IMG/VR virus record: IMGVR_UViG_2648501400_000002
Coordinates: 1 to 23,959 of that record
Direction: 5' to 3' (one strand)
DNA: 23,959 bases
Origin: a virus
Lineage: Duplodnaviria; Heunggongvirae; Uroviricota; Caudoviricetes
Shown: positions 8,050 through 9,045 of the stretch, one piece after another
Position numbering within the stretch: position 1 is the stretch's first letter
How the letters are laid out: every line of letters starts with the position of its first letter
Made by a program: the position numbers and the translations under genes
Notes under the pieces: model-generated
What the model saw: the letters and a program-made list of their open reading frames with translations, nothing else
Told to the model about the DNA's origin: nothing
Databases searched by the model: none

Positions 8050-8091
8050 TGCCATGATTGCCACGGATGGCAACATATTAACGGCATAATA

Positions 8092-8121
8092 TTGACTTTT
8101 TGAATAACTTTGGGGAAACTT
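8092..8121 (+). promoter_or_regulatory. pR'-like late promoter / qut region
   Basis: TTGACT at 8092-8097, 17-nt spacer, GAAACT at 8115-8120, in the position of lambda pR' (TTGACT...TAAATT) just downstream of Q. Confidence 0.55.
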
Positions 8122-8286
8122 GACACCAATAATGGGCGTTTTTTACATGTCATTGATGAGTCTCAATAACCTGCCGCCGAGTAGTTTTTATGCTCTGAAT
8201 TGTATTTGTGTAGTAAACATGCTGACTGCAATGTAATAGAGTTTTTTTAGCCTGTAACCTCTTGACGGCATTGAATTGCTTTTGTT

Positions 8287-9045
8287 ATGAGTTGTAAGCC
8301 AATGTTATCATCTTGTATTGGGGTGGTTATGAAGGATGGTGCGCTGCTCAGGAGTTCTTCACTTTTTATTGCCTACATGGGATGCCTTGGATGGGGGAGT
8401 GCTTATTTCTATGGATGGGGTACTTCTTTTTACTACGGCTTCCCATGGTGGATTGTAGGTGCAGGTGTTGATGATGTTGCCAGAAGTTTATTTTTTGCAG
8501 TTATCGTCATTGCTATATTTCTTATCGGTTGGGGTATTGGTGTTGTATTCTTTTTCGCAGTGAAAAGAAAACATTCTATGCAAGAGCTAAATGTATTTCG
8601 CCTTTATTTTGCTGTGGAATTATTGTTTGTGCCGGCAATTATTGAGTTTTCTATATTGAGACAGAAGATTCAGGTACCTCTTTTGCTACTGTCAGCAGCG
8701 ATTGCGCTGGCGGTTACAATTTCGATAAGATCTTATGGGCGATTTTTATCGGTATCATGCTTCTATGATAAGCCATTTATAAAAAAACATTTTTTTGAGA
8801 TTGTGATGATTGCTTTTGTGGCATATTTCTGGCTTTTTTCATTTCTGACAGGATATTACAAACCGCAGTTTAAGAAAGAATATGAAATGATTAATTATAA
8901 TGATGGTTGGTATTATGTTCTTGCTCGTTATGATAATTGTCTGGTTTTGTCTACTTCTTTCAATGCAGGTAGTAAAAGGTTTGTCATTTATCAATCAGCA
9001 CAAGATAAGAATCTTCAGGTTGATATTGTAAGGACCAGAATTTAA
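8287..9045 (+). CDS. Hypothetical polytopic membrane protein (~5 predicted hydrophobic helices plus a C-terminal soluble tail) in the Q-S moron slot
   Basis: 252-aa ORF in AT-rich DNA, absent from lambda at this position. Hydrophobic helices such as LFFAVIVIAIFLIGWGIGVVFFFAV. Start uncertain: 8287, or 8329 after a GGGGTGG-like site. Confidence 0.65.
   Translation: MSCKPMLSSCIGVVMKDGALLRSSSLFIAYMGCLGWGSAYFYGWGTSFYYGFPWWIVGAGVDDVARSLFFAVIVIAIFLIGWGIGVVFFFAVKRKHSMQELNVFRLYFAVELLFVPAIIEFSILRQKIQVPLLLLSAAIALAVTISIRSYGRFLSVSCFYDKPFIKKHFFEIVMIAFVAYFWLFSFLTGYYKPQFKKEYEMINYNDGWYYVLARYDNCLVLSTSFNAGSKRFVIYQSAQDKNLQVDIVRTRI

Follow-up and report, generated by a model that had tools for sequence, protein, structure and literature searches.

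A TfpB-family membrane protein in the Q-S cargo slot of a Caudoviricetes phage

Here we follow up a gene that lies between the late-gene antiterminator Q and the lysis genes in a 23,959-nucleotide stretch of DNA from a Caudoviricetes virus (IMG/VR record IMGVR_UViG_2648501400_000002; this whole stretch is called the window, and coordinates are positions in it unless another locus is named). The original prediction had treated its product as an orphan that could not be recognised. By sequence, however, the protein is a catalogued member of the TfpB family: it falls under PF27470 'TfpB', PHROG 1521 and the RefSeq name 'STM1630 family protein', and it is identical to gp68 of phage 434. In fact, the gene was already known, because identical copies are present in phage 434 and in prophages of enteropathogenic Escherichia coli (EPEC) E2348/69 and enterohaemorrhagic E. 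coli (EHEC) O157:H7, and the family has its own Pfam entry. Our best guess from the sequence is that it encodes a non-enzymatic, periplasm-facing protein of lysogenic conversion and not a lysis protein. Taken jointly, the propositions that it is a self-contained moron, that it acts independently of lysis and that it adopts the predicted topology seem to us about evenly balanced between true and false.

A catalogued family and a corrected start codon

The two proteins that gave the family its names both align with the window protein over their full length. Salmonella STM1630 (cluster P0074, 2,681 member sequences) is 46% identical (E 1e-70), and the Moraxella 'protein tfpB' (P0227, a name found in one source) aligns end to end, with a profile E of 1e-63 and a tblastn E of 1e-19 to M. 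bovis. We equate P0074 with STM1630 because in Salmonella its neighbour is a gene of the SseJ type, with Sif and GDSL lipase domains. A third cluster, P0001, is 100% identical to the window protein. The architecture also agrees: about 235-260 amino acids (aa), five transmembrane (TM) helices, a C-terminal beta-domain and the residues A25, Y26, Y28, W30, G31, G37, W40, W41, A51 and R52. The PF27470 assignment is a precomputed Pfam label, found on all 108 clusters retrieved with the single sequence and on all of the best 120 of the 146 clusters retrieved with the family profile. Our local Pfam and NCBIfam copies hold no model for the TfpB family, which is why direct scans of the window protein against Pfam-A and NCBIfam returned no match; 21 diverse members likewise gave no meaningful match in local Pfam. 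In PHROGs the protein belongs to phrog_1521, in the function-unknown class (E 2e-154), and the newest RefSeq name of its entry, WP_001299184.1, is 'STM1630 family protein'. Literature searches returned nothing useful on DUF3927 (the small gene that follows), PF27470, phrog_1521 or the protein accessions, and no genome paper for phage 434.

8329..9045, + strand: TfpB-family (PF27470 / 'STM1630 family') inner-membrane protein, 238 aa (homology, structure model, dN/dS)
8320-8326, + strand: Shine-Dalgarno-like GGGGTGG (read from the sequence)

The open reading frame (ORF) runs without interruption on the + strand over 8287..9045 and counts 252 codons from its first ATG, which is how a 252-aa, AT-rich protein had been proposed. 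The ORF is real and AT-rich (GC content 36.5%, 31% at third codon positions, vs 49.7% for the window), but judged by its homologs the true product is a 238-aa protein starting at the Met at 8329. This Met is the first residue in all homologs aligned (22-24, down to 45% identity), and it follows the GGGGTGG run; no run of this kind precedes the candidate ATGs at 8287, 8302 and 8377. RefSeq (WP_001299184.1) uses 8329, the phage 434 record uses 8302, nine codons further upstream, and the ATG at 8287 sits within a conserved promoter-like -10 element (see below). Homolog N-termini, ribosome-binding site and promoter position together rule out both the 252-aa start at 8287 and the 247-aa start at 8302.

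The ratio of non-synonymous to synonymous substitution rates (dN/dS) is 0.05-0.18 against homologs of 97% to 46% identity. With 108-146 homologous database clusters, this argues for a genuine coding sequence under purifying selection, more than a chance ORF. We also looked for an interruption of the frame, since a broken frame would have spoken against the gene: it is intact, at 99% identity or more, in 679 complete E. coli records, including O157:H7, O111, O26, O103 and EPEC E2348/69.

Predicted structure and the conserved periplasmic face

Two AlphaFold2 models, one built from 22 sequences (pLDDT, the per-residue confidence score, 69) and one from 52 (pLDDT 79; predicted TM-score 0.70), agree with each other. 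They predict helices at residues 10-36, 47-79, 89-111, 116-136 and 149-181, followed by a five-stranded beta-domain of about 55 aa at 187-232; hydropathy also gives five helices. The proposal of a polytopic membrane protein with five helices therefore stands, whereas the soluble tail of about 70 residues that went with it shrinks to some 57-60 residues (about 180-238) and takes the form of this beta-domain.

Charge is distributed very unevenly: the N-terminus, loop 2 and loop 4 together carry on average 6.4 Lys+Arg against a mean of 0.56 in loops 1 and 3, and this holds in 52/52 sequences. By the positive-inside rule, the predicted topology is thus N-in/C-out, which would place loop 1 and the beta-domain in the periplasm. 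Conservation is highest in TM1, loop 1 and the first half of the beta-domain, and lowest in loop 3, TM4 and loop 4. The invariant residues are A15, A25, Y26, Y28, W30, G31, G37, W40, W41, A51, R52, G175, Y196 and F218. An invariant loop, YYGFPWW...G.D..ARSL, is predicted, like Arg52, to face the periplasm. TM1 in addition displays an uninterrupted stripe of small residues at positions 21/25/29/33/37.

Could such a protein modify the envelope enzymatically? Among the 52 family members there is no invariant Asp, Glu, His, Lys or Cys, and we found neither an invariant constellation of such residues or Ser, nor similarity to a transferase or hydrolase fold; the predicted fold has no detected relative among PDB or viral structures. 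The lack of an invariant residue of these five kinds in the 52 members disfavours an enzymatic role in envelope modification.

The Q-S slot and its transcription

The features between Q and the end of the lysis cassette are as follows.

7426..8049, + strand: late-gene antiterminator Q, lambda type (PF03589 Antiterm, E 4e-58; RefSeq 'antitermination protein')
8092..8120, + strand: pR' with qut; -35 TTGACT at 8092-8097, 17-nt spacer, -10 GAAACT at 8115-8120 (mapped from the mEp234 annotation)
8168..8192, + strand: degenerate terminator remnant, by its folding not a functional tR' (aligns with the 434 terminator just downstream of 434 Q)
8262..8291, + strand: candidate own promoter; -35 TTGACG at 8262-8267, TG at 8283-8284, -10 TATGAG at 8286-8291 (conserved consensus-like block)
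9131..9289, + strand: DUF3927 small membrane protein, 52 aa, 'TciB-like' (PF13064, E 1.4e-14; phrog_1470)
9370..9768, - strand: 132-codon ORF, RefSeq 'hypothetical protein', of doubtful reality (ORF list, RefSeq)
9476..9503, + strand: strong intrinsic terminator closing the cassette, 8-bp stem with 7 G-C pairs, T8 (-15.2 kcal/mol, z -2.9; annotated in phage 434)
9845..9883, + strand: second terminator-like hairpin just upstream of the holin gene, 11-pair stem, T-rich tail (terminator scan)
9911..10126, + strand: S21-type class II pinholin, 71 aa, Met1/Met4 dual start (PF04971, E 2e-32; RefSeq coordinates)
10126..10623, + strand: endolysin of the signal-anchor-release (SAR) type (PF00959, E 4e-45)
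10608..11087, + strand: Rz spanin with embedded Rz1 frame (PF03245, E 1e-28)

The gene thus occupies the cargo slot downstream of pR' to which it had been assigned, between a PF03589 Q and an S21-type lysis cassette at 9911..11087. Over the 80 nt that follow Q, identity to the pR'/qut region annotated in HK97-like phages is 90-92%, and the pR' transcript is expected to start near 8127-8128; its leader shows no unusual structure (z -0.5). What follows pR' is, however, no ordinary tR'. In a comparison of window 8150-8192 with L001 2468-2512 and L055 800-842, the remnant at 8168-8192 folds at only -3.9 kcal/mol (z +0.18), against -13.3 (z -4.2) for the 434 terminator and -15.1 (z -4.4) for the tR' of mEp234. 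Scanning 8121-9475 for intrinsic terminators revealed no hairpin followed by a T-run, the T-runs that do occur there having no hairpin. By these signals there is no working intrinsic tR' between pR' and the gene, and the first real terminator downstream of pR' is the hairpin at 9476-9503, which separates the cassette from S. In lambda, pR' is constitutive. If the same is true here, the gene and DUF3927 would lie inside a Q-independent transcript, with 9476-9503 acting as the functional tR'.

The gene also seems to bring a promoter with it. A block of the form TTGAC[GT]-N15-TTTGT[TA]ATG[TA], 40-70 nt upstream of the start codon, is kept in five E. coli-lineage alleles whose synonymous divergence (dS) is saturated. 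Because it is conserved while synonymous sites are saturated, the block argues for a candidate promoter belonging to the gene. A second, allele-specific candidate, TTGTTA-18-TGtTATCAT, is found at 8282-8311. In Salmonella, the homolog STM1630 has its own mapped transcription start site and -10 box (10.1101/689075). Given the promoter-like block, the Salmonella start site and the missing functional tR', expression in the lysogen appears at least as likely as late-only expression. Late expression from pR', as first proposed, is accordingly an incomplete account: the gene does lie downstream of pR', but with a conserved promoter-like block and no functional tR' in between, the protein is probably made in the lysogen too.

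The gene stands immediately before the lysis cassette, shares its strand and falls within the late transcript, which raises another possibility, namely that the protein is a lysis-timing modulator, antiholin-like or depolarising, made late from pR' and tuning the S21 pinholin and the SAR endolysin. The stripe of small residues in TM1 resembles a glycine zipper, and glycine-zipper-like motifs also occur in pinholins. Yet the window protein matches no holin, antiholin or lysis-regulator family in Pfam, PHROGs or NCBIfam, nor do the 21 members in Pfam, a result that was sought because such a match would have overturned the cargo interpretation. Rather than a holin-sized protein (below about 150 aa, with 1-4 TM helices), it has 238 aa, five helices and a beta-domain. 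Moreover, the true holin is the next gene but one, S already has a dual-start antiholin arrangement, a strong terminator stands between the cassette and S, and most family members are far from lysis genes. A lysis role is unlikely, and this specific form of it strikes us as very improbable indeed.

The arrangement as a whole fits a textbook moron in a lambdoid prophage, with expression in the lysogen followed by stronger expression late in lytic growth. Its base composition is foreign to the window. It is bounded downstream by the strong terminator at 9476-9503, and upstream the evidence for a promoter is the conserved consensus-like block, along with the start site mapped for the Salmonella homolog (10.1101/689075). 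It is also absent from a relative: in mEp234, Q, pR' and tR' are followed by a small ORF and then by the holin gene, and the cassette is missing. Because mEp234 runs from tR' almost directly to the holin, the cassette is best read as an insertion. Finally, the gene recurs in unrelated contexts, behind four Q families, on plasmids and in chromosomes.

Distribution and genomic contexts

An exhaustive profile search of 1.84 billion representatives gave 71 family matches, and members are found in Enterobacteriaceae, Pasteurellaceae, Neisseriaceae and Moraxella. Within E. coli the family is common: 1,197/5,426 complete genomes (about 22%) have a detectable copy. Alleles that differ widely (45-68% identity) circulate side by side in large number, and one genome can hold the gene in as many as 4 places. 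Among 50,697 deposited phage genomes, only those of 434 (100% identical protein) and 2B8 carry the gene. The Q that precedes it comes from four Pfam families: PF03589 (the window), PF06323 (434 and O157), PF06530 (Yersinia) and PF06576 (further E. coli prophages). The distance from the Q stop to the TfpB start is 279 nt here (8050 to 8329) and also in a Yersinia enterocolitica prophage (L010 2404-2682, L011 288-566); this is probably a coincidence. The two prophages have different Q families, and their intergenic stretches can hardly be aligned. When the flanking ORFs of 28 loci were compared all against all, no neighbour gene proved common across genera. DUF3927 adjoins the gene only where the allele is at least 98% identical, which rules it out as an obligate partner. 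For these two reasons, the gene appears from its genomic neighbourhoods to be a stand-alone unit.

Many of these contexts involve virulence genes. Homologous alleles (45-68% identical) reside on 106 Shigella pINV plasmids, including pWR501 of M90T, and on an invasion plasmid of enteroinvasive E. coli (EIEC; L048) about 3.6 kb separate the copy from spa40, one of the mxi-spa genes. On plasmids of enterotoxigenic E. coli (ETEC; L005-L008), a 59%-identical member at 5001-5714 stands opposite eltAB at 2987-4134 on the other strand. This member occurs on more than 1,000 contigs, about 870 bp from eltAB and divergent from it, with estB about 3 kb away and insertion sequence (IS) elements around, an arrangement which hints that the LT-I locus may carry a remnant of a prophage Q-S region. 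In Citrobacter rodentium, a chromosomal copy is transcribed divergently from lpxR, and its site shares synteny with the Salmonella locus; the same chromosomal site is kept across Salmonella subspecies. Another E. coli allele adjoins iroBC and bor. In four different arrangements the family gene has lpxR, which encodes a lipid A deacylase, no more than about 0.2-1.4 kb away: in 434, in O157:H7, in C. rodentium and in one further E. coli prophage (lpxR at L001 310-1269, L049 2667-3626, L009 3863-4823 and, in L037-L039, about 4970-5919; L038 also has pmrD). This proximity may reflect shared AT-rich cargo or a functional link through the envelope.

In Pasteurellaceae and Neisseriaceae, the family is represented by a lone gene of low GC content that is flanked by housekeeping genes and whose site differs from genus to genus. 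As side observations, in Glaesserella parasuis the member adjoins genes of a cytolethal distending toxin (CdtA/C domains, PF03498; region L020 6955-9017), and in a Mesocricetibacter metagenome-assembled genome it adjoins HlyB/HlyD-type type I secretion genes (region L018 6888-10454).

Such neighbours lend themselves to the explanation that the protein is a host-associated envelope factor, a virulence-island passenger that helps animal-associated bacteria to adapt their envelope, co-regulated with virulence genes and merely spread by phage. STM1630 is positively co-regulated with Salmonella pathogenicity island 2 (SPI-2; PMC2639726, Table 2) and its own promoter drives its induction in macrophages (10.1101/689075, 10.1101/450098). 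Virulence neighbours are recurrent (sseJ, eltAB, estB, lpxR in its four arrangements, pmrD, iroBC, bor, cdtA/C and HlyBD, besides spa40 in EIEC and the Shigella pINV copies), purifying selection has maintained the gene for a long time, and the family is seen only in the four groups of bacteria listed above. However, deletion of STM1630 has no macrophage phenotype and the gene is silenced in ST313 (10.1101/689075), adjacency to virulence genes may just mirror shared AT-rich mobile DNA, and sequence databases are biased towards pathogens. We regard this explanation as possible but rather unlikely.

In Moraxella, the surroundings are of another kind. The homologs of M. bovis, M. lacunata, M. equi and M. 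oblonga are flanked by type IV pilin genes (MNAQKGFTLIELMIV...), and in M. lacunata and M. equi, where the contigs are long enough, also adjoin a 328-aa Piv-like gene. We take this locus to be the classical tfpQ/I-tfpB-piv inversion locus. M. bovis has an intact copy, M. lacunata and M. equi have frameshifted ones; in M. lacunata NCTC10359 the tfpB frame is split into 195 + 68 codons. In two contigs of that strain (L031 and L032), the pilin-tfpB segment has opposite orientations relative to the flanking genes, and thus the assembly caught both Piv inversion states: in one, tfpB lies directly downstream of a complete pilin gene on the same strand, and in the other the two are convergent.

This linkage could mean that the protein is an accessory factor of type IV pili, or of another trans-envelope machine, analogous to TfpY/FimB-like proteins. 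The homolog lies between pilin genes in four Moraxella species and beside a Piv-like gene, and type IVa pili are known from all four bacterial families that carry a TfpB gene. TfpY-like proteins are also polytopic, have a periplasmic C-terminal domain, are encoded beside pilin genes and promote pilus assembly (PMC11841053). Their architecture is nevertheless different, as they have three TM helices and a mixed alpha/beta domain of larger size (PMC11841053), two of the Moraxella copies are frameshifted, and the enteric copies have no pilus genes nearby. Pilin linkage as a family-wide trait is ruled out, since it is seen in Moraxella only. A pilus accessory role thus looks quite improbable to us, though less so than a role in lysis timing.

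The most distant relatives (P0151, P0166; L050-L054), which carry the PF27470 label, weakly for some, always follow an SRAP (PF02586) gene. One copy of this subfamily lies at the edge of a P2-like prophage with umuDC, and another in an icd-adjacent islet, beside a defence-like AAA_21/AAA_23 ATPase gene pair.

What the protein may do

To bring these observations together, we propose the following sequence of events. In the lysogen, the gene would be transcribed by two routes, from its own sigma-70-type promoter (8262-8291) and from pR' without need for Q, the latter because the decayed terminator after pR' would let transcription read through. After induction, the Q-modified late transcript would read the gene again, at a high level. 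The protein would then act at the periplasmic face of the inner membrane by binding, not catalysis, its target being a conserved envelope component. Binding is preferred over catalysis because no Asp, Glu, His, Lys or Cys is invariant and because the parts predicted to face the periplasm are the most conserved. The effect would be to alter crossing or assembly at the outer face of the inner membrane, to the benefit of the carrier cell. This benefit would amount to lysogenic conversion, either as a gatekeeper in exclusion or as a host-associated adaptation of the envelope.

We envision, as a speculation that we consider less probable than its contrary by a good margin, that the family forms a so far unrecognised, mobile, single-gene class of inner-membrane 'gatekeepers'. 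Such a class would accompany cassettes of toxin and virulence genes, the late regions of prophages and pilin loci in animal-associated Proteobacteria, and its invariant periplasmic aromatic loop would either exclude incoming phage DNA or toxins that attack the membrane, or aid the crossing of toxins or pili. If so, the loss of tR' would have moved the gene and DUF3927 into the Q-independent pR' transcript, as a route to constitutive expression in the lysogen.

Superinfection exclusion or immunity is the more specific form of such gatekeeping: the periplasmic loop and beta-domain would block incoming phage DNA or agents that attack the membrane, for instance a pore-forming colicin. The gene has the architecture of a prophage moron and is probably expressed in the lysogen. 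Its predicted layout, a membrane anchor with a small periplasmic domain, resembles known exclusion proteins such as HK97 gp15 and T4 Imm. Divergent alleles co-circulate in E. coli, in up to 4 places per genome, and loss or disruption is frequent, as seen in the frameshifts of M. lacunata and M. equi, the fragment families in PHROGs and the dead promoter of ST313 (10.1101/689075). The Moraxella copy is inside a locus for type IV pili, which are phage receptors, and the distant subfamily occurs in prophage variable regions and beside the AAA_21/AAA_23 pair. On the other hand, PADLOC-DB 2.0 gave no match at E <= 0.1 for the TfpB-family protein, for DUF3927 or for the minus-strand ORF, a negative with which an uncatalogued exclusion function may still be compatible. 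Residence at one chromosomal site across Salmonella subspecies and C. rodentium, and as a lone gene in Pasteurellaceae, is unusually stable for defence cargo. Nor do the parts predicted to lie in the periplasm, which are the most conserved ones, bear any mark of an arms race. In our view exclusion is therefore a tentative option, with a probability similar to that of the envelope factor.

Several points weigh against the idea of a periplasm-facing conversion protein made in the lysogen. Beyond the empty PADLOC search, the neighbourhoods contain no defence genes in any consistent way. Both the topology and the fold are predicted (pLDDT 79), and the missing catalytic-type invariant residue is still compatible with an activity that depends on Arg, Tyr or Ser. 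The terminator check concerned terminators of the intrinsic type. The own promoter is read from consensus and conservation, and its -10, TATGAG, lacks the usual final T; the -10 of pR', GAAACT, is weaker than the lambda TAAATT, so that Q-independent transcription may be low. As for the family, no experiment on any member shows a function. Deletion of STM1630 leaves replication in macrophages unchanged and its promoter is inactivated in Salmonella ST313 (10.1101/689075), while its co-regulation with SPI-2 could be a side effect of the intergenic region shared with sseJ. A deletion-library screen scored STM1630 as hypermotile (PMC4219756), but it was not among the 7/24 mutants confirmed with clean deletions (PMC4534456).

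A membrane moron in the Q-S slot will not surprise a specialist. Still, the spread of the family, its relative-less predicted fold and the decayed tR' make an experiment worthwhile. The family is conserved, under purifying selection and very widespread, yet no member has a known function. Since it is found next to toxin or virulence genes in numerous unrelated settings, it is a sensible object for such work, and the decayed tR' offers a small, testable example of how cargo in the Q-S slot could come to be expressed in the lysogen.

Other genes and cargo in the window

The 'TciB' label of the DUF3927 protein was rejected as a functional clue: the name reflects position in the P1 tciABC operon, with no assay behind it, and that operon was named for the similarity of TciA to TerB. 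The minus-strand ORF at 9370-9768 has no match in Pfam, NCBIfam, PHROG or PADLOC; it is antisense to the late transcript, overlaps the cassette terminator and may be spurious.

A second AT-rich cargo gene (GC 0.28-0.39) is found in the nin region, a 590-aa ORF on the - strand (3264-5036) within an AT-rich block at 3001-5500. It has no Pfam or NCBIfam match, and 252 complete E. coli genomes, most of them EHEC O103, O145 and O157, carry it under the annotation 'hypothetical protein'. An HNH/AP2-domain gene (5543..6190) comes after it. The ORF at 5295-5564 translates to a long (FL)n run; it is a short tandem DNA repeat of the AT-rich block and probably not a gene. A scan of the window for RNA genes gave no Rfam family and no tRNA.

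Comparison with known systems

The TfpB proteins of Moraxella bovis and M. lacunata share with the window protein the PF27470 label, a length of about 235-261 aa, the five helices plus beta-domain and the invariant motif AY.YGWG....YG.PWW....G....ARSL. They differ in their 27-29% identity and in their location, between pilin genes beside a Piv-like recombinase gene and not in a prophage, and the copies of M. lacunata and M. equi are frameshifted. STM1630 of Salmonella Typhimurium belongs to the same family, is 46% identical over its full length and is likewise AT-rich and horizontally acquired. Unlike the window gene, it is chromosomal and divergent from sseJ, with no phage genes around, and it is co-regulated with SPI-2 and induced in macrophages (PMC2639726, 10.1101/689075).

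TfpY/TfpX/TfpZ/FimB-like proteins are, similarly, polytopic inner-membrane proteins with a periplasmic C-terminal domain, non-enzymatic and proposed to bind pilin (PMC11841053). Compared by described architecture, however, their three TM helices and larger alpha/beta domain (PMC11841053) contrast with the five helices and 55-aa beta-domain found here. The three helices, mixed domain and place beside a major pilin gene that characterise them are not those of the window protein, and the differing architecture speaks against a relationship. TfpY-like proteins are nonetheless a possible functional analogy for Moraxella TfpB.

The protein gp68 of phage 434 (CPT_434_68, 'putative membrane protein') is 100% identical to ours and gp58 of phage 2B8 is 97.9% identical, and both phages have the same cassette, in which the gene is followed by DUF3927 and then by the terminator. 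What differs is the setting: in 434 and O157:H7 a Q of the PF06323 family and a strong terminator precede the cassette, lpxR being found upstream of it and a gene for a SASA esterase downstream, whereas in the window it comes after a lambda-type Q and a decayed terminator.

With other cargo and morons (stxAB, LT-II, lambda bor/lom, HK97 gp15), the gene shares the slot, a foreign base composition, a promoter-like site plus terminator and absence from mEp234; in sequence and fold, these proteins are unrelated to the window protein. Another difference concerns stx, which in phages such as 933W and H-19B is shielded from pR' by a working tR'. The gene in the window appears to have no such shield.

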